From positions 448,001 through 512,000 of the forward strand of contig CAVXPZ010000004.1 in assembly GCA_963763775.1 (NCBI GenBank): 64,000 nt of DNA. The letters run 5' to 3'. This document shows, one piece after another, positions 36,006-42,883 of this stretch (its first letter is position 1; each line of letters begins with the position of its first letter). Source of the stretch: an uncultured Chloroflexia bacterium. GTDB taxonomy: Bacteria > Chloroflexota > Limnocylindria > Limnocylindrales > CSP1-4. The notes under the pieces are model-generated. The model had not been told where the DNA came from. It was given only the letters and a program-made list of their open reading frames with translations, and did no database searches. The translations under genes were made by a program, and so were the position numbers.

Positions 36006-36488
36006 TCAGTGCCCGCCGTCGCCGTCGTGCGCGGCCAGGTCCGCCTTCGCGAGGGCCGCTGCCACCATGCCGCTGACGACCTTGCCGTCGGCGCGCCCGC
36101 GGGTCCGCGGCGAGAGCCAGCCCATGACCTTGCCGAGGTCGCGCGCGGACGAGGCGCCCGTCGCGGCGATGCCCTCGTCCACGAGGGCGGCGATCTCCGC
36201 CTCGCTCATGGCCTCGGGCAGGTAGTCGCGGAGGATGGCGATCTCCGCCTCCTCCTTGGTCGCGAGGTCCTCGCGACCGGCCCCGCGGAACGCCTCGACG
36301 GATTCCCGGCGCGTCTTCACCTCACGGGTGAGCACGGTCAGGACCTCGTCGTCGGTCAGGGGCTTGCCCTGCCGCTTCTCGACGTTGTAGATGGCGTTGA
36401 CGGCCATCCGCAGCACGTCGCGGCGCAGGGCCTCACCGCCGCGCATGGCGGTGGCGATATCGGTCTGGATGCGATCTCGAAGGGACAC
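36006..36488 (-). CDS. GatB/YqeY domain protein
   Basis: SLRDRIQTDIATAMR, KTRRESVEAF, YLPE, DLGKVMG, RADGK; directly downstream of rpsU. Confidence 0.92.
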   Translation of the reverse strand: MSLRDRIQTDIATAMRGGEALRRDVLRMAVNAIYNVEKRQGKPLTDDEVLTVLTREVKTRRESVEAFRGAGREDLATKEEAEIAILRDYLPEAMSEAEIAALVDEGIAATGASSARDLGKVMGWLSPRTRGRADGKVVSGMVAAALAKADLAAHDGDGGH

Positions 36489-36586
36489 CGGTTCGGCAAC
36501 CTCGGGCGGCGGTCGGCCGATCACTCGGCCTGGTGCCGGGACGCCCGCGGGGGCGCAGGGTCGGTCGGGTGCGAGCGGATGCTCGC

Positions 36587-36772
36587 TCAGCCGGCCTGCG
36601 TTCGGGCGTTCTTCTTGCGCTTCGCTTCCTTGCGCTTCCGCTTCACCGACGGCTTCTCGTAGTGCTCGCGTCGGCGAGCCTCTGCGAGGATGCCGCTCTG
36701 CTGGATCTTCTTGTTGAAGCGACGCAGGGCGCTCTCGAACGTCTCGTTCTCTCCCACTCGGACTTCAGCCAA
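36587..36772 (-). CDS. rpsU: 30S ribosomal protein S21
   Basis: [16 protein letters not shown]...[18 protein letters not shown]; GGAGGTGA RBS before TTG. Confidence 0.97.
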
Positions 36773-36900
36773 TCCCGGTTCACCTCCCCAGGCCTAGGGT
36801 CGTGTCTTCCGGCGTCGGGCTCGCGGCCAACCGGCCCGCACGCGTCCTGGACGGCTTCCCGCCAAGGGCCGCCGGAGCATAGCCGAGGCCCCCGAGGCGG

Positions 36901-37242
36901 TCAAACGGCCGGAAGGTGCTGTCCGAGGACGAAGATCCAGTAGGCATCCAGTCCAGCGACGACAGCCCAGAACCCGATGATGAGCGTCGGGCGCCGAAGG
37001 AAACACTTGCTCCACGACACGCCGAGCGTGATCGAGCGGGTGTACAGCACGATCGCGACGATCGCGACGACGAGCACGAAGACCGCCGGACCGACAAGCC
37101 AGGCGATCAGACCGATCGTACCCATCCGGCAGAAGGTGAACGCCAGCCGCTCGTACTTTTCGGGCCGACTCAGCGGAGGCCGGACGTAGGAGCCGGGCCC
37201 GACCGCGGGCGGCGCGAGGGAGTCACCGTGGATGCTCGTCAT
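36901..37242 (-). CDS. Small Cys-containing membrane protein, last gene of the radical SAM operon
   Basis: ATGA overlap with the radical SAM stop; 2-3 TM; FTFC and SKC cysteines. Confidence 0.75.
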   Translation of the reverse strand: MTSIHGDSLAPPAVGPGSYVRPPLSRPEKYERLAFTFCRMGTIGLIAWLVGPAVFVLVVAIVAIVLYTRSITLGVSWSKCFLRRPTLIIGFWAVVAGLDAYWIFVLGQHLPAV

Positions 37243-38825
37243 GGCACCGTCCTCAGCTCGCCTGACTCGAGTATGGGTGCCTGAGCAGCGGCGTCCAGAC
37301 TGACCAACCGGGCTGCGGGCACCATCCCTGCCGACGTTCGGCGACGCAGTTCCCCGAACACTTGCCTCGCGCAGAACGGGACCCGCACCGGGTTCGCTTC
37401 GCCGTCCGTCGACCCGACGTGGACACAGCATTGCTGCAGGCGCTCGACGTTCAGGGTCCATGGATCCATGAACGTCTTGATCGACACCCGCTTGACGCGC
37501 AGGGCGATCTCGTCGAGCGGCGCGCTCCCCCGGTTCGTGAGCCAGCGGCCAAGGCCCTTGATGAACCCCGACACCCCGAGGTCGCAGACCTCGCAGATGT
37601 CCAGGAGATAGTCGATGACCTCGCGCCGGCTGACCATCGCGGTCTCCGAGAGCAAGCCGGTCAGGGATTCCCAGAGCGCATCATCGGGCGCGAGGCGATT
37701 GCCGAACACGGCCATCCGCTGCTTCAGACGATCCCGTCCGATCAGTTGCACGATCGACCGATGACCTCCGTCATCGCCTCGGATGAAGTAGGTGAGCGAC
37801 GAGCAGTCCGGGTGGCTGCACGGCAGCGCGATGAAATCGTCCGGTCCGACCCGACCGTCGGTCTGCTCGCCGAGCCGGCGGATGGTGCCCGTCGTCGTCG
37901 CCCGTGCCATGGGATCGACCGGGTTGGCCCGCCCGGAGGTGAACATCGGCTGGATGGCGACCCCCGCGATGTAGTCGGTCGCGAAGGCATGGTCGACGAC
38001 GGCACCCACCTCGTCATCGTTGACCCCCTTGGCGACGGCCATCGCCAGCGTCGTGAAGATCCGCTCTCCCGTGAGCCGCCGGATCGCCTCTGCCTTCATG
38101 TCGCGAAGGTCCTCACCTCGATGGAACAGGTGGGTCTCCAGTCGAAAGCCGTCGAACTGGAGGTACACCTCGACGCGGTCCCGCAGGCGCGCGAGCTCCG
38201 CCAGGAACCGGTCGTCTCGAGCGATCCGGATCCCGTTGGTATTGAGGACCACGCGGGTGACCTTGCGCTCCGCGGCCGCGGGGAGGATCTCGACGATCTC
38301 CGGATGGACGGTCGGCTCGCCGCCCGACAGCATGAGGGCGTCGACCCGGCCACCCTCGCGCTCGATCGCCGTGTCGAGCGACCGCAGGATGTGCGGAAGT
38401 CGGGCATGACGATTGATCCCGGGACCACTGTCGGCGAAGCAGGTCGGGCAATGCAGATTGCAGTTCTGGGTCACGTCGAGCAGCAGGATGCAGCTGTGCT
38501 GGGTCTGGAGATCGCCGAGGCCGTCCAGGTAGCCCATCGGGATCGGCCTGACGTTGTCGGGGACGTCCGGCGTGATCTCGCGCGTCGGGATCCGCCAATC
38601 CTGGAGGTCCTCCCAGAGGTCGTGGTCCTCTTCGTACAGGCTCACCACCTCTCCGTGGCCCCGCTGGCAGTAGCGCCGCAGGTAGACCGCGCCGTCCATC
38701 GCCACGAGGTTGCCCTGGAGGATGTCGGTCTCGTAGTCGATCTCCCGATCGGGATCGTCGCTGAAGCACTGACCGCAGACGGTCAGCACCATTCGGAGCG
38801 GCAGATAGGGGCGAAGCTCCAGCAT
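37239..38825 (-). CDS. Radical SAM enzyme of the Tes/GDGT-MAS (MJ0619, COG1964)-like family
   Basis: CNLHCPTC; LSGGEPTVHP; NTNG; YLQFDG; N-terminal CGQC...YCQRGH; PCSHPDC; C-terminal FMDPW...QQCCVH...VPFC. Confidence 0.88.
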   Translation of the reverse strand: MLELRPYLPLRMVLTVCGQCFSDDPDREIDYETDILQGNLVAMDGAVYLRRYCQRGHGEVVSLYEEDHDLWEDLQDWRIPTREITPDVPDNVRPIPMGYLDGLGDLQTQHSCILLLDVTQNCNLHCPTCFADSGPGINRHARLPHILRSLDTAIEREGGRVDALMLSGGEPTVHPEIVEILPAAAERKVTRVVLNTNGIRIARDDRFLAELARLRDRVEVYLQFDGFRLETHLFHRGEDLRDMKAEAIRRLTGERIFTTLAMAVAKGVNDDEVGAVVDHAFATDYIAGVAIQPMFTSGRANPVDPMARATTTGTIRRLGEQTDGRVGPDDFIALPCSHPDCSSLTYFIRGDDGGHRSIVQLIGRDRLKQRMAVFGNRLAPDDALWESLTGLLSETAMVSRREVIDYLLDICEVCDLGVSGFIKGLGRWLTNRGSAPLDEIALRVKRVSIKTFMDPWTLNVERLQQCCVHVGSTDGEANPVRVPFCARQVFGELRRRTSAGMVPAARLVSLDAAAQAPILESGELRTVP

Positions 38826-39367
38826 CAGGCGGACCCCATCCCCACGAAGGGGAGGCAGAGCCCCGTGATCGCGAGGAGCACGACGACCGGGACGACGAGC
38901 AAGATCGCCAGCGCGCGGCCAGCGCGCTCGGGGTCCGGATGGAGGGCCCGCAGGACCAGGGCCGAGATGCCGAGCCCGAGGAGGAGGGCGACCGTGAGCA
39001 CCCCCTGGGCCATCGGACCGGCGCCGTACGTGGTTGGACGACCCAGGTAGGCGAACGCGAATAGCACCCAGACGATGCCGTACGCACCCAGGATCGCCCA
39101 TCTCGCCCTCGATCTGATGGGCTTCATGGCATCGCGTTCATGCTCGCGGGCGGTGCGGAGGGCGAATGCCTCGCGGACCTCGTCAGCCGTGTATCCGCCG
39201 GCGATCGCCGCATGTTCGAGGGCGGCGTCGGTGAACTTCGATCGATTCACGGTCAACCAGGTGGCGAGCTGCTCCACCCTGGAGGCCCCTTGCCACCCGG
39301 TCGACGGGGAGACCGGCGTCGGATCCGGGTCGCTTGCTGCGGCGTCGCCTCGGCCGTTCTCAGTCAC
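38825..39367 (-). CDS. Hypothetical membrane protein (soluble N-terminus, 3 TM, C-terminal TGLC)
   Basis: GGAGG RBS plus GTG overlapping the Lgt-like stop; stop overlaps the radical SAM start. Confidence 0.75.
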   Translation of the reverse strand: MTENGRGDAAASDPDPTPVSPSTGWQGASRVEQLATWLTVNRSKFTDAALEHAAIAGGYTADEVREAFALRTAREHERDAMKPIRSRARWAILGAYGIVWVLFAFAYLGRPTTYGAGPMAQGVLTVALLLGLGISALVLRALHPDPERAGRALAILLVVPVVVLLAITGLCLPFVGMGSA

Positions 39368-40182
39368 GAGGTTCCCTCCATGTGGATGACGGGCGGCGGC
39401 GTGGGCACCCGGTAGGCGTCGCGTCGCACCTGGCGGATGAAATGGAGCACCAGGAGCGCGACCATGGGGATCAGGACCCATTGAGGCCCTGTCAAGCCAA
39501 GCGCCTGCGGTTCGTTCCCGCGAACGAACTCCACGAGAAATCGAAAGACCCCCGCAGCGACGAGGTACATCTTCACGGCATCGCCGGGGACGCTCACCTT
39601 GTCGCGATACCGCAGGATGACGGCGATCGCGATGAGATTGAACGCGATCTCGTACAGCATCGACGGATGCATCGGAACGTCGCACCCTGGGCAGCGAGCG
39701 AAGGCGGCTGCGGCGGCGGCATCGACGCTGATCCCCCAGGGCAGCCCCGTCGGCGTCCCGAGTGGGAGCTCCGAGAAGAAGCACCCGACCCGCCCGATCG
39801 CCGTCGCGACCGGGATCGCCAGCAGGTAGCAGTCGCCCGTGGAGCGCGTGTACCCGAAGGCGCGTTTCGTGAGGGCGATCGCCAGATACCCTCCCGCGAG
39901 CGCGCCCAGGATGCTCTTCCCGCTGTGCTCGATGACCTCGCTGAACGGGCGGTCGGCGAAGGCCGCATAGAGCTCGACGTGCTCCCACGACGTGATGACG
40001 CGCGCGCCGATCGCCCCACCGAGGACGGCGGCCAGGGAGATCCAGACGATCGGTCCGCCGAGCCATCCGCGGACCCGCAGTTCGCGGTAGTAGATCGCCA
40101 GGCCGACGGCCAGCGCGAGCACCGTGAACGCATCGTGCGTCATCAGGGTCAGGGGACCCAGCTGGAACAGGACCGGATGCAT
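39364..40182 (-). CDS. Divergent prolipoprotein diacylglyceryl transferase (Lgt) family protein
   Basis: MHPVLFQLG start, GGAIGAR, IGRVGCF, LPWG, HPSMLYE, RFLVEFVR. Confidence 0.85.
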   Translation of the reverse strand: MHPVLFQLGPLTLMTHDAFTVLALAVGLAIYYRELRVRGWLGGPIVWISLAAVLGGAIGARVITSWEHVELYAAFADRPFSEVIEHSGKSILGALAGGYLAIALTKRAFGYTRSTGDCYLLAIPVATAIGRVGCFFSELPLGTPTGLPWGISVDAAAAAAFARCPGCDVPMHPSMLYEIAFNLIAIAVILRYRDKVSVPGDAVKMYLVAAGVFRFLVEFVRGNEPQALGLTGPQWVLIPMVALLVLHFIRQVRRDAYRVPTPPPVIHMEGTS

Positions 40183-40326
40183 CAGCGCCACTCCGCGACC
40201 GGTTCGTCGGAGGCTCGGGCTCCACGGATCCGAGGCCGTCCGTCTCGCACGGTACACGGTCGGGCAATGCCCGAGCGTCGCGCGGCCGACGTCTCGCTCC
40301 GCCCAAGGCGTAGGCTGGCGCACAGC

Positions 40327-41991
40327 ATGACGACCCTGCTCGATCTGCTCGATTCAGCCGTCGGACGCTACGGCGACCGCGGGGCCCTGGCCCTGCGACG
40401 CGACGACGGCACCACGGCCGAGTGGAGCTTCCGCGAGCTCCAGCGTCGCTCCCGGATCGCCGCGTGGCGGCTGCGCGCCCTGGGCCTCGAGCCGGGCGAC
40501 CGCATCCTGACGTGGTCGCCGTCCATGCCCGAGCTCGCCGCCGCCTACTACGGGGCGATGGAGGCCCGGCTCATCCTGGTGCCGCTGGACCTGCGGATGT
40601 CGCCGCAGGCGGTCGAGGGGATCGTGGCCGCGTCGAACGCTCGGCACCTCGTCCTGGGCACGGGCCGGGACGCGCCGGACCCGCGCGAGGCCGGCCTCGA
40701 GCACTTCCCGACGACGACCGTGGAGGCGCTGTGCGCCGAGCCGGCTCCGGATGACCCGGCGTTCCCGCCCGACTGGGAGGCGCGACAGGGCGCCTGGGAG
40801 CGACCGACCACGGACGAGACCTTCGAGCTCGTGTTCACCTCCGGCACGACCGGGAATCCGAAGGGCGTGACGCTCACCCACGACAACGTCGTCGCCTCGA
40901 TCGAGTCGTTCCACCGGATCGTGCCGCCGATGGAGCACCGGATCGTCTCGCTGCTCCCGCTCTCGCACCTGCTCGAGCAGGCCGTCGGGTTGTACTACGC
41001 GCTCGACGTCGGCGCGGACATCCTGTACGTGCGCAGCCGAAACCCGCGCGTGATCTTCGATGCGCTGCGCGACCACCGCGTCACGTCGATGGTGGTCGTC
41101 CCGCAGGTGCTCGACCTGTTCTGGAGCGCCATCGAGCGCGAGGTCGAGAAACGCGGACGCACGCGCGCGTTCGAGCGGCTTCGCTGGGTCGCGCGGCACC
41201 TGCCGATGGGCCTGCGGCCACGGCTCTTCGGCAGCATCCACACGCAGCTCGGCGGCCACTTCCGCCTGTTCCTCTCCTCGGGGGCGTTCCTGCCGCCGAG
41301 CCTCCAGCAGGCGTGGGAGGACATCGGCGTCACCGTCCTCCAGGGCTACGGCGCCACCGAGACCGGGACCGGCACCTGTACGACCCTCCAGGACCACGGG
41401 CCGGGCACGGTGGGGCGACCCCCAGAGGGCATCGAGATGCGGCTCGCGGCCGACGGCGAGATCCAGTTCCGCGGCCGCACGGTCTTCGGCGGCTACTGGA
41501 ACGACCCCGTGGCGACGGCCGACGCGTTCACCGAGGACGGCTGGTACCGGACCGGCGACATCGGCCACCTCGACGCGGACGGCCGGCTCATCCTGTCCGG
41601 GCGGACCAAGGACATCATCGTGCTGCCCAACGGGTTCAACGTGTACCCGGAGGACATCGAGAACGCCCTGCGGATCGCCGGCATCCGCGATTCGGTGGTC
41701 GCCGAGACCGAGCCGGGCCGCATCGAGGCCGTCGTCCTCGCCGGGACCCCGATCGGCGAGACCGTCGCGCCGCCGCCGCCGGCCGAGTTCCGCGCCCGCA
41801 TCGACGCGGCCGTCAAGGCCGCGAACGGGACCCTGGGCCCGAACCAGCGGATCGCGGCGTGGCGCCTGTGGCCGCAGGAGGACTTCCCGCGCACCCACAC
41901 GCTCAAGATCAAGCGGGCGCCCGTGCGCGCGTGGCTCGCCGCCGATCATCCCCTCCCGGTCTCGGACGAGTCGGCTCAGCCCACCGGGTAG
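40327..41991 (+). CDS. AMP-dependent synthetase (long-chain acyl-CoA ligase-like)
   Basis: FTSGTTGNPKGV, LPLSH, QGYGATE, WYRTGDIG, GRTKD, NVYPEDIE. Confidence 0.9.
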   Translation: MTTLLDLLDSAVGRYGDRGALALRRDDGTTAEWSFRELQRRSRIAAWRLRALGLEPGDRILTWSPSMPELAAAYYGAMEARLILVPLDLRMSPQAVEGIVAASNARHLVLGTGRDAPDPREAGLEHFPTTTVEALCAEPAPDDPAFPPDWEARQGAWERPTTDETFELVFTSGTTGNPKGVTLTHDNVVASIESFHRIVPPMEHRIVSLLPLSHLLEQAVGLYYALDVGADILYVRSRNPRVIFDALRDHRVTSMVVVPQVLDLFWSAIEREVEKRGRTRAFERLRWVARHLPMGLRPRLFGSIHTQLGGHFRLFLSSGAFLPPSLQQAWEDIGVTVLQGYGATETGTGTCTTLQDHGPGTVGRPPEGIEMRLAADGEIQFRGRTVFGGYWNDPVATADAFTEDGWYRTGDIGHLDADGRLILSGRTKDIIVLPNGFNVYPEDIENALRIAGIRDSVVAETEPGRIEAVVLAGTPIGETVAPPPPAEFRARIDAAVKAANGTLGPNQRIAAWRLWPQEDFPRTHTLKIKRAPVRAWLAADHPLPVSDESAQPTG

Positions 41992-42521
41992 GGGATCCCG
42001 ATCGTCTCGAGCGCGGCCTGGATGTCCGGGGCGGTGGGATCGGTCGCGGCGCCGGGAAGCCAGTCGTACACGATCACCGTCGTCCCGAGGCCGCGGATGA
42101 CGTGGACCGTGCCTTCCGGCGACTGGACGCGACCCGGGCCGGTGGCCAGCCACTGCTGCTGCTCGGCGGCCGCCGCGGCTGCGCGCTGCGTGTCGGGGAA
42201 CTCGTAGACGGCGATGAGGCCGCGGTCCTGGTCCTGCGGCATGAACGCCTGGTAGACGGCGCGCGGCGCCGAGGCCAGCAGCGGCGCTTCGGCCGGGCGG
42301 AACGGCGTCTGCGTGTCGAGGAGGGTCATCCGCCGCTCGCCGAGCGCGGCCGAGATGGCCGCGCGCGTCTGGAGGATCGCGTCGGTGGTCGGCCGGTCGG
42401 GAGCGGTCGTCGTCGCCGGGAAGGTCGCGGCGGGCGGCGGGGCCCCGGCAGCGCATCCGGCGACCACGAGCGCCCCGGCGAGCGCTCCAGTAAGCGCGAC
42501 GGCGCGGACCAGTCGGCTCAT
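41976..42521 (-). CDS. Hypothetical lipoprotein
   Basis: Signal peptide with VAGC lipobox and Pro/Thr linker; ATGA overlap with the HIT gene. Confidence 0.75.
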   Translation of the reverse strand: MSRLVRAVALTGALAGALVVAGCAAGAPPPAATFPATTTAPDRPTTDAILQTRAAISAALGERRMTLLDTQTPFRPAEAPLLASAPRAVYQAFMPQDQDRGLIAVYEFPDTQRAAAAAAEQQQWLATGPGRVQSPEGTVHVIRGLGTTVIVYDWLPGAATDPTAPDIQAALETIGIPYPVG

Positions 42522-42883
42522 CCGGGCGGCCACTCGAACGGCCGGCCGCCCATCAGGTGCAGGTGCAGGTGGTCGACCGTCTGCCCGCCCCAACGGCCCA
42601 CGTTCGTCACGACGCGGTAGCCCGCGTCGGCGATGCCCTGCTCGCGGGCCACGGCCGCGCTCACCGCGAAGAGCCGGCCAAGCAATGGGCCGTCGGCCTC
42701 CGTCAGGTCCGCGGCCGAGCCGATGTGCCGGCGCGGGATCACGAGGATGTGCGTCGGCGCCCGGGGCGCGATGTCGCGGAACGCGATGACCTCGTCGTCC
42801 TCGTGGACCCGGGTCGATGGGATCTCGTCCGCGACGATGCGGCAGAACAGGCAGTCGGCGGCCACGGGCCCTCCTTCGGTCAT
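42518..42883 (-). CDS. Histidine triad (HINT) nucleotide-binding protein
   Basis: DCLFCRI, AFRDIAP.APTHILVIP, GQTVDHLHLHLMGG. Confidence 0.95.
   Translation of the reverse strand: MTEGGPVAADCLFCRIVADEIPSTRVHEDDEVIAFRDIAPRAPTHILVIPRRHIGSAADLTEADGPLLGRLFAVSAAVAREQGIADAGYRVVTNVGRWGGQTVDHLHLHLMGGRPFEWPPG

Follow-up and report, generated by a model that had tools for sequence, protein, structure and literature searches.

A four-gene cassette pairing an Lgt paralogue with a Tes-like radical SAM protein: a candidate membrane module of Chloroflexota and other bacteria

Results

The cassette and its conservation

The DNA analyzed here (hereafter, the window) is a stretch of 64,000 nt from contig CAVXPZ010000004.1 of an uncultured Chloroflexia bacterium, the genome assembly of which comprises 3.3 Mb and is 87% complete. 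The closest named relatives of the proteins encoded in this genome are Chloroflexota of the 'Candidatus Limnocylindria/Limnocylindrales' type. A cassette of four minus-strand genes, 40182-36901, encodes a paralogue of the Lgt family (LgtP), a membrane protein (mp180), a radical S-adenosylmethionine (SAM) protein resembling Tes/GDGT-MAS (rSAM) and a second membrane protein (mp113). Judging from the comparisons presented below, these four genes appear to constitute one conserved membrane module. The positions of the genes and of their neighbours are presented in Table 1.

A first-pass annotation of the window had described the four genes as a chain of stop/start overlaps lying between a HIT/lipoprotein pair and rpsU. 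Reading of the three junctions bore out the chain, and the flanking genes were identified where they had been placed. The stop of LgtP and the start of mp180 overlap in GTGA (39367-39364), the stop of mp180 and the start of rSAM meet in TGATG with a single common base at 38825, and the stop of rSAM and the start of mp113 overlap in ATGA (37242-37239). The four frames (113, 528, 180 and 272 amino acids, aa, from mp113 back to LgtP) translate free of internal stops. The gene set is considered to go beyond chance because it is conserved in other genomes.

Gene-neighbourhood analysis, proposed with the first-pass annotation as a check, found the set to be conserved elsewhere. In a sample of 301 Chloroflexota genomes, a Tes-like rSAM was detected in 37 (E up to 1e-20). 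LgtP lies upstream on the same strand and within 3 kb in 11 of 34 neighbourhoods (which include a second rSAM copy in genome G221), and the window locus is the twelfth case; several of the 23 neighbourhoods without LgtP end less than 1 kb upstream of rSAM. Searches of the 301 genomes with an LgtP profile revealed 13 genomes scoring at least 275 bits, while all others scored at most 171. The 13 are the window genome (G000), the 11 in which LgtP adjoins rSAM, and G257, where LgtP and rSAM are located on separate short contigs; they are exactly the 13 genomes whose rSAM falls in LgtP-linked clades. In the rSAM tree, which is unrooted and has long branches, the LgtP-linked sequences make up the window clade and two more groups, with a large LgtP-less clade nested among them.

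A species-level scan of all bacteria and archaea, with one genome per species, yielded 80 loci. Those with an rSAM at least 41% identical to the window rSAM number 41, all of the window clade, and LgtP is adjacent on the same strand in 39 of them (32 upstream, 7 downstream); the two loci without LgtP lie at contig ends. Among the loci in which rSAM identity is at most 36%, LgtP is present in 10 of 38. The more similar group comprises Limnocylindrales and other Chloroflexota, Armatimonadota (Fimbriimonas, Abditibacterium) and Vulcanimicrobiota; it also includes a Rubrobacter metagenome-assembled genome (MAG) and many cultured Actinomycetota, which represent the genera Nocardia, Nonomuraea, Microbispora, Dactylosporangium, Ornithinimicrobium, Microbacterium, Nocardioides, Metallococcus, Humibacillus, Arthrobacter, Pseudarthrobacter, Janibacter and Mycobacterium. 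The ten LgtP loci of the less similar group belong to Ktedonosporobacter, an Anaerolineae MAG, Lentimicrobium, Bacteroidales, three Planctomycetota, an Acidobacteriota MAG, a Clostridiaceae MAG and a gammaproteobacterial MAG. At the genus level, rSAM of the window type (E up to 1e-126) occurs in about 29 of 151 genomes of one Mycobacterium-level genus, and the module is missing from two genomes of the same genus as the window. The counts across relatives are not independent, and the unpublished genomes G227, G145 and G038 enter only the tallies and one row of a tree. The four gene families are inherited together across phyla.

Table 1 Positions of the cassette genes and of the neighbouring features in the window
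Feature	Position	Strand	Description
LgtP	39364..40182	-	Lgt-family paralogue, 272 aa
mp180	38825..39367	-	membrane protein, 180 aa
rSAM	37239..38825	-	Tes/GDGT-MAS-like radical SAM protein, 528 aa
mp113	36901..37242	-	membrane protein, 113 aa
acyl-CoA ligase	40330..41991	+	553 aa; AMP-binding, 221 bits; divergent from the cassette
ribosomal protein S21 (rpsU)	36587-36772		downstream of the cassette
YqeY (yqeY)	36006-36524		downstream of the cassette
HIT gene	42518-42883		upstream side, beyond the acyl-CoA ligase
putative lipoprotein open reading frame	41976-42593		signal-like stretch ending VVAGC; no Pfam match

The radical SAM protein

The radical SAM motifs named in the first-pass annotation are all present in the 528-aa translation: CGQC (17-20), CQRGH (53-57) and CNLHCPTC (122-129), followed on the C-terminal side by PCSHPDC (335-341), QCCVH (465-469) and PFC (483-485). 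The protein matches the Pfam Radical_SAM domain and, weakly, Zn_ribbon_HMPTM, a zinc ribbon named after MJ0619. Among NCBIfam models, the best is TrsS (NF045646), with 217.3 bits against a cut-off of 490 and positions 16-430 of 441 covered, and the second is Tes (NF045702), with 182.7 bits against a cut-off of 450. None of 30 Chloroflexota homologues reaches either cut-off (best E-values, 2.8e-114 for TrsS and 1e-106 for Tes). MoaA reaches 42 bits, and the scores of mycofactocin and comparable maturation models, for cofactors or peptides, do not exceed about 45 bits. In sequence searches of the PDB, the sole full-length match is 7TOL (GDGT-MAS; E 6.6e-36), in which the core and the C-terminal part are covered, while a PqqE structure matches the rSAM core only (E 7.9e-4). 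A cofactor family (MoaA, PqqE) was thus ruled out for rSAM, which in this comparison, likewise proposed with the first-pass annotation, scores highest with the TrsS and Tes models. Two of the outcomes that the first-pass annotation had named as refuting, placement in a cofactor family and a gene order not conserved elsewhere, were therefore not observed.

An AlphaFold model of rSAM was built from ten sequences (predicted local distance difference test, pLDDT, 72.7; predicted template modelling score, pTM, 0.79). A Foldseek search with this model returned 7TOL (E 6.7e-30, template modelling (TM) score 0.65/0.69 over 558 columns) and 7TOM (about 1e-29), and the next fold match was SkfB, with a TM score of 0.34. 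The identity to 7TOL in the structural alignment is about 21%. Because 7TOL is the only full-length match by sequence as well as by predicted fold, we place rSAM in the Tes superfamily.

The conservation of the putative metal-binding residues was assessed in 30 sequences. C122, C126 and C129 of the radical SAM motif CX3CX2C are invariant in all 30. At the presumed rubredoxin-like site, the ligands of which are assigned from the motif, C53 and H57 are invariant and C17 and C20 are at least 90% conserved. In the C-terminal region, F452 and D454 are invariant and M453 is at least 90% conserved; QCCVH, with C466 and C467, aligns with RCCIH of 7TOL, and PFC, with C485, aligns with PFC; these Cys residues are candidate cluster ligands. 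rSAM reads PMGYLDGLGDLQTQH where 7TOL and most homologues have GCPxDCGLCxxH, and the CPxDCGxC motif of the Tes N-terminal [4Fe-4S] cluster is absent from the window protein (PMGYLDGLG); in the model this region has a pLDDT below 50. CPxDCGxC occurs in 43 of 76 parsed homologues and in 0 of 33 window-type rSAMs. Further conserved Cys residues, C336 and C341 (PCSHPDC) and C411 and C414 (C411xxC414), have no counterpart at the aligned places in 7TOL. The first-pass assignment to MJ0619/Tes was therefore retained with respect to likeness in sequence and fold over the whole length, and it failed at the TrsS and Tes cut-offs and at the missing N-cluster motif. Since the score lies below the curated cut-off and this motif is missing, we regard rSAM as a relative of Tes and not as a Tes.

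The window rSAM gene has no in-frame TGA. The rSAM matches in three genomes of the Mycobacterium-level genus (G444, G432 and G358) contain one TGA each and reach query residues 514-521; since the normal end of the protein is thereby passed, this TGA is probably the stop codon of the gene itself, with the match continuing into the next frame, and not a selenocysteine codon or a break.

In the LgtP-less clade of Tes-like rSAMs, a class-I SAM methyltransferase directly follows rSAM (L058:7036-10393; also L055, L047 and L054), and a CDP-alcohol (cytidine diphosphate-alcohol) phosphatidyltransferase gene adjoins it in the same loci. This arrangement hints at a separate lipid-headgroup or lipid-methylation pathway in the sister clade.

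The Lgt paralogue

The genome harbors three genes of the Lgt family: the canonical one on contig C1 (208 bits to PF01790), LgtP (111) and a third (71). LgtP matches PF01790 (Pfam LGT) over residues 3-248 with 111.4 bits, well above the cut-off of 24.9, and TIGR00544 with 57.4 bits, under the equivalog cut-off of 118.9. Its identity to the canonical Lgt of the same genome is about 30%. When 27 Lgt-family proteins encoded in ten Chloroflexota genomes were placed in a tree, computed with a quick method, the 12 LgtP sequences form one group (Shimodaira-Hasegawa-like approximate likelihood ratio test, SH-aLRT, 97) apart from the 13 canonical ones, and the branching of LgtP broadly parallels the rSAM tree. 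A higher-scoring canonical Lgt is also present in each of the 11 carrier genomes checked, including the window genome and cultured Mycobacterium, Pseudarthrobacter and Nocardia. The gene had been put forward as a non-canonical Lgt paralogue, and the low TIGR00544 score, the separate clade and the canonical copy elsewhere in the genome agree with this; by these comparisons LgtP is best described as an extra, dedicated paralogue of a distinct clade.

Alignment with E. coli Lgt (5AZB) places H16 of LgtP at Y26 and C134 at N146, while, according to this and the family alignments, R143, G154, H196 (HPS motif), R239, E243 and R246 are kept. Among 50 LgtP sequences from all phyla in which the paralogue was found, N146C occurs in 49 and Y26H in 37, and R143, G154, R239 and an acidic residue at position 243 occur in all 50. 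A prediction of the complex between LgtP and the C-terminal part of mp180 returned "no answer" with a score of 0.00 and was used neither for nor against binding.

Two sequence variants were observed within LgtP. Most window-clade members possess a C-P-G/S-C motif directly before HPS (in the window, CPGC at 39670-39700, residues about 162-167), which was seen in Chloroflexota and several Actinomycetota (L107, L108, L110 and L111); in L106, L113, L116, L120 and L137, the insert before HPS is present and Cys-free. Neither motif nor insert was found in canonical Lgt or in the distant LgtP clades. Together with C134, CPGC places three Cys residues near the presumed active site of LgtP. The second variant, GR(V/I)(A/G)C...GCC.G, has Cys at the places of N146 and E151 and occurs in Vulcanimicrobiota, Armatimonadota, Planctomycetota, Bacteroidota and a Clostridiaceae MAG (loci L103-L105, L130, L132, L133, L140, L155, L156, L158, L174 and L175).

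The small membrane proteins

mp180 has no Pfam or NCBIfam match, and its nearest Atlas clusters are unnamed Chloroflexota proteins. Hydropathy predicts an N-terminal soluble part followed by three transmembrane helices (88-106, 116-134 and 153-171). In seven mp180 sequences, the sole invariant columns are M1, P14, G58, L124, P160, G169 and C171. The last of these, in the context ITGLC, closes the third and last helix, 9 residues before the C-terminus. Because the N-terminal 87 residues hold 11 K/R, the predicted topology puts the N-terminus on the inner side, and the Cys closes the helix on the outer side. A helix-end Cys that follows small residues at the outer face would resemble an Lgt acceptor, although its motif is non-canonical.

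Relatives of mp180 in sister genomes are present in one to at least four tandem copies. Short forms end 8-14 residues past the Cys; long forms are extended at the C-terminus by a domain of about 140 aa that contains two Cys residues, finishes in WxC[ED] and matches no Pfam family. Tandem multiplication to at least four copies is seen at L035:4677-7654 and L034:5578-7650, where some copies appear frameshifted. In Actinomycetota, the counterparts of mp180 have a helix ending in [ST]-[AG]-G-x-C, and the distant LgtP-linked Chloroflexota loci encode a small membrane protein with a last-helix Cys 8-14 residues from the end. A heuristic rule for proteins with a Cys in the C-terminal helix detected one in 26 of 39 module loci, of which at least 2 look like wrong-frame open reading frames (ORFs), compared with 39 of 843 control ORFs.

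mp113 shows no Pfam match above the cut-off. It has 690 relatives; none of the 120 listed has a Pfam family, and all the source names given are "hypothetical protein". Across 17 sequences that represent four phyla, invariance is confined to C38 (FTFC), L45, G74 and C80 (SKC). Both small membrane proteins are thus Cys-bearing, as had been read from the window alone, and the Cys residues in question (C171 of mp180, C38 and C80 of mp113) are all invariant. For mp113, AlphaFold gave a low-confidence model (pLDDT 64, pTM 0.44) that suggests three helices with a break at G51-P52; the topology of the protein is uncertain.

An iterative search detected mp113 in 31 of 41 window-clade loci and in all 6 window-type loci of the Chloroflexota sample, compared with 0 of 39 other species-representative loci and 0 of 8 other Chloroflexota loci. 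When the 76 loci parsable by pattern were sorted according to the N-cluster motif of rSAM, mp113 was found beside 28 of 33 rSAMs without CPxDCGxC and beside none of the 43 with it. mp113 accompanies only rSAMs without the N-cluster motif. In one distant LgtP-linked clade (L041:7179-8081 and L045:9175-10074), the gene after rSAM encodes not mp113 but a predicted permease of the ArsP_1 family (108 bits) that contains a CTC motif.

Flanking genes and variability of the site

The codon usage of the cassette had been judged by eye to be less extreme than that of its neighbours, and counting confirmed this. The GC content at third codon positions (GC3) is 0.84-0.87 in the four cassette genes and 0.91-0.97 in five flanking genes (the ybeY-region gene, the 7TM-HD gene, YqeY, ACS and HIT); it is 0.87 in ORF 41976-42593 and 0.82 in rpsU. 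The overall GC content is 0.66-0.69 across 37000-40000, compared with 0.70-0.77 in the surroundings.

The divergent acyl-CoA ligase gene is separated from LgtP by 147 bp. The first-pass annotation had suggested that it may supply chains to the system. The ligase adjoins the cassette in the window and in five close relatives (divergent and 72-80% identical in L036, L097 and L098; on the same strand and 42% identical in L035 and L037), and only 2 of the 80 species-representative loci (L097 and L098) have it beside the cassette. It was therefore ruled out as a core component.

The interval between rpsU and HIT (window 36773-41991) is variable inside the genus. In G124 (same genus; L091/L094), the ligase is kept, and a gene for an extracytoplasmic function (ECF) sigma factor and an unknown gene are located where the cassette sits in the window. 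In G261 (L092/L095), neither cassette nor ligase is present, and the rpsU flank is almost directly joined to the lipoprotein/HIT flank. The variability of the site inside the genus, along with the lower GC3, identifies the cassette as accessory DNA.

A scan for promoters and terminators yielded one promoter-like site, immediately 3' of mp113, and no convincing terminator. The site is a sigma-70-like match (9/12; 36904-36876, minus strand) that begins 3 bases inside the end of mp113 and points at rpsU. The presence of a promoter-like match before rpsU suggests that this gene does not rely on read-through from the cassette. On the other flank, the longest ORFs of the putative lipoprotein and of HIT, which lie on the same strand, have 76 bases in common; the real lipoprotein start is probably further downstream, near MSRLVRAV...VVAGC. 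A search of sequencing runs yielded no RNA run and only small DNA shares (at most 0.16), and it was not used to address expression or habitat.

Discussion

Bacterial homologues of Tes have been known since 2022 and are suspected makers of membrane-spanning lipids, although in these papers they are presented without a demonstrated function (PMC8941075, PMC13459092); PMC13459092 mentions Tes homologues detected in some bacterial genomes and describes Mss as a separately discovered synthase. Lgt homologues of the N146C type are in print as uncharacterized proteins (PMC13251419), and Supplementary Fig. S8 and Table S2 of that paper may already show the N146C group, which could bear on novelty. The parts of the cassette are therefore familiar. 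What seems to be new is the coupling of LgtP with a Tes-like rSAM and two Cys proteins: full-text searches, which covered few subscription journals and no supplements, found no paper linking an Lgt of the LgtP type with a Tes-like rSAM, and a prior description is possible.

The locus joins two questions, namely, the role of the bacterial Tes homologues and the role of the second Lgt of actinomycetes, with Y26H and N146C. The carriers include cultured Pseudarthrobacter, Arthrobacter, Nocardioides, Microbispora, Nonomuraea, Janibacter, Nocardia and Mycobacterium, and because the set occurs in cultured strains, the hypothesis outlined below is directly testable.

How, then, could the four proteins act together? 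Enzymes of the Lgt family take a diacylglyceryl group from phosphatidylglycerol and attach it to the thiol of a Cys residue on the outer side of the membrane. In the Tes reaction, a hydrogen atom is abstracted at the terminal carbon of a lipid tail, and two carbons of this kind are linked via a cluster-bound carbon-sulfur intermediate (PMC13459092). By analogy with these enzymes, we infer that LgtP is active, that the Cys of mp180 is its acceptor, that rSAM acts on lipid tails and that mp113 has a part in holding it. The last helix of mp180-type proteins would run from inside to outside and end in a Cys in the lipobox-like context [ST]-[AG]-G-x-C, and LgtP would lipidate this Cys at the outer leaflet. 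The cytoplasmic rSAM, held at the inner face by mp113, would abstract hydrogen from the terminus of a lipid tail, as Tes does, and form a new bond that cyclizes or cross-links the acyl chains of the anchor. The CDP-alcohol phosphatidyltransferase beside the rSAM sister clade speaks in favour of this scheme by providing a lipid context for the wider family. Taken as a whole, the two-step reading (a dedicated lipidation of Cys and, after it, radical chemistry on the lipid tails) is tentative, and we put its chance somewhat below even.

A bolder form of the scheme would make the module the source of a protein-borne, membrane-spanning tether: an S-diacylglycerylated polytopic protein, or a lipopeptide cut from it, with tails that are cyclized or joined to a lipid or to an mp113 Cys in the opposite leaflet. 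We consider this form unlikely. If true, it would represent a kind of anchor not yet described, in ordinary aerobic soil bacteria, and would provide the bacterial Tes homologues of this clade, as well as the second Lgt of actinomycetes, with a function.

Several observations weigh against lipidation followed by tail chemistry. LgtP lacks Y26 and N146, which, along with G154, we take to be the three strictly required residues of E. coli Lgt, and because both are changed, its activity is in doubt. Carrier genera such as Arthrobacter and Nocardioides are not known for membrane-spanning lipids, which counts against a bulk product and not against a rare one. The heuristic rule found no protein with a C-terminal Cys in 13 of the 39 module loci, although some of these hold long forms outside its reach, and in many Actinomycetota no more than 60-120 bp separate LgtP from rSAM. 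For rSAM, the score below the Tes cut-off and the missing N-terminal cluster motif belong to the same side of the balance. The invariant Cys residues of mp113 could themselves be the substrate, or metal ligands that stand in for the lost N-terminal cluster, which would change the mechanism. The mp180 Cys lies in ITGLC, a context that departs from [LVI][ASTVI][GAS]C, the canonical lipobox of N-terminal signal peptides (PMC12462473). Finally, in MSMEG_5408, the pair Y26H and N146C is taken as a sign of presumably low Lgt activity (PMC13251419), a source that quotes G142-R143-L-G-N146 as the Lgt signature motif and proposes R143 and R239, both of which LgtP keeps, for binding of the phospholipid headgroup and gating.

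Another important question is whether rSAM needs a protein anchor at all. It may be the bacterial counterpart of Tes, joining the tails of ordinary phospholipids into bulk or minor membrane-spanning lipids; LgtP would then be a phosphatidylglycerol-binding partner or the mover of the joined diacylglyceryl unit, and the small proteins would be scaffolds or regulators. The full-length Tes-like fold and the kept motifs that align with the C-terminal cluster region of Tes are consistent with this, as are the two kept residues of LgtP proposed as headgroup binders and the phosphatidyltransferase gene beside the sister clade, and such lipids have been proposed as products of bacterial Tes homologues by Zeng et al. 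2022 (PMC8941075). However, this explanation accounts neither for the invariant Cys among the very few invariant positions of both small proteins nor for the need for an Lgt paralogue, and Mss, the known synthase of such lipids in bacteria, is presented as a distinct radical SAM enzyme (PMC13459092). Moreover, the module is patchy inside genera (missing from the two same-genus genomes, present in about 29 of 151 in the Mycobacterium-level genus), so that an accessory function fits better than core membrane architecture. We therefore judge such lipids to be an improbable product of the cassette. The same invariant Cys residues lead to a different possibility, namely, that rSAM performs radical chemistry on protein, acting on a Cys of mp113 or mp180 and linking, for example, its sulfur to carbon. 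The carbon-sulfur step would be borrowed from the Tes cluster, and the product would be a cross-linked or lipid-tethered small protein or, if signal peptidase II cuts before the modified Cys, a short lipopeptide. The strict pairing of mp113 with rSAMs lacking the N-cluster motif, the short mp180 forms that stop only 8-14 residues after the Cys and the carbon-sulfur intermediate of the Tes mechanism (PMC13459092) are in line with this chemistry. On the other hand, rSAM has no SPASM or twitch domain, its sole full-length relative is a lipid enzyme, peptide maturases match the core only (SkfB, TM score 0.34), and in the loci read we found no leader-peptide-like conservation and no protease or exporter genes. 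A protein substrate of this kind seems doubtful to us.

Could the four genes be neighbours without a shared function? LgtP, which lacks two residues that we take to be essential, might then be a decaying or redundant copy of Lgt. MSMEG_5408 is likewise treated in the literature as a possibly redundant homologue (PMC13251419; bioRxiv 2025.01.07.631728). Decay is difficult to reconcile with a coherent LgtP clade in which R143, G154 and R239 are kept in 50 of 50 sequences, and chance proximity with the stop/start overlaps in the window, with same-strand linkage in 39 of 41 loci from four phyla and with co-occurrence in 13 of 13 genomes of the 301. This explanation is therefore very improbable. 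The scheme of Cys lipidation followed by radical chemistry on the lipid tails is the reading to which we give the most weight.

The closest known system on the side of rSAM is Tes/GDGT-MAS (MJ0619; 7TOL, 7TOM). Four metal sites are described in Tes: a rubredoxin-like iron bound by three Cys and a His, an N-terminal [4Fe-4S] cluster bound by three Cys and a His, the radical SAM cluster, and a C-terminal [4Fe-4S] cluster bound by three Cys and a Met, where the first substrate radical is parked as a carbon-sulfur adduct (PMC13459092). rSAM shares the radical SAM motif CX3CX2C, the rubredoxin-like set of three Cys and a His, and the C-terminal pattern FMD...CC.H...PFC. It differs in lacking one of the four sites, and window-type rSAMs are bacterial and paired with an Lgt paralogue and mp113. 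TrsS, a radical SAM (seleno)protein for which Haft and Tolstoy 2025 is cited as the defining paper (PMC13188914), provides the best NCBIfam model (NF045646), yet rSAM reaches only 217 bits against 490, and the window gene has no in-frame TGA. Mss of Thermotoga is likewise a radical SAM enzyme and is reported to join the tails of fatty acids in bacteria (PMC13459092).

On the side of LgtP, the nearest counterpart is MSMEG_5408 of M. smegmatis (PMC13251419), which, as far as its published description allows comparison, shares Y26H and N146C and the presence of a major canonical Lgt in the same genome. With canonical Lgt (E. coli, 5AZB), LgtP has in common the full-length Pfam LGT domain and residues R143, G154, H196, R239, E243 and R246. 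It differs from canonical Lgt in Y26H and N146C, in the CPGC insert of the window clade and in its presumed acceptor, which would be a Cys closing the final helix of a polytopic protein rather than one in the lipobox of a signal peptide.

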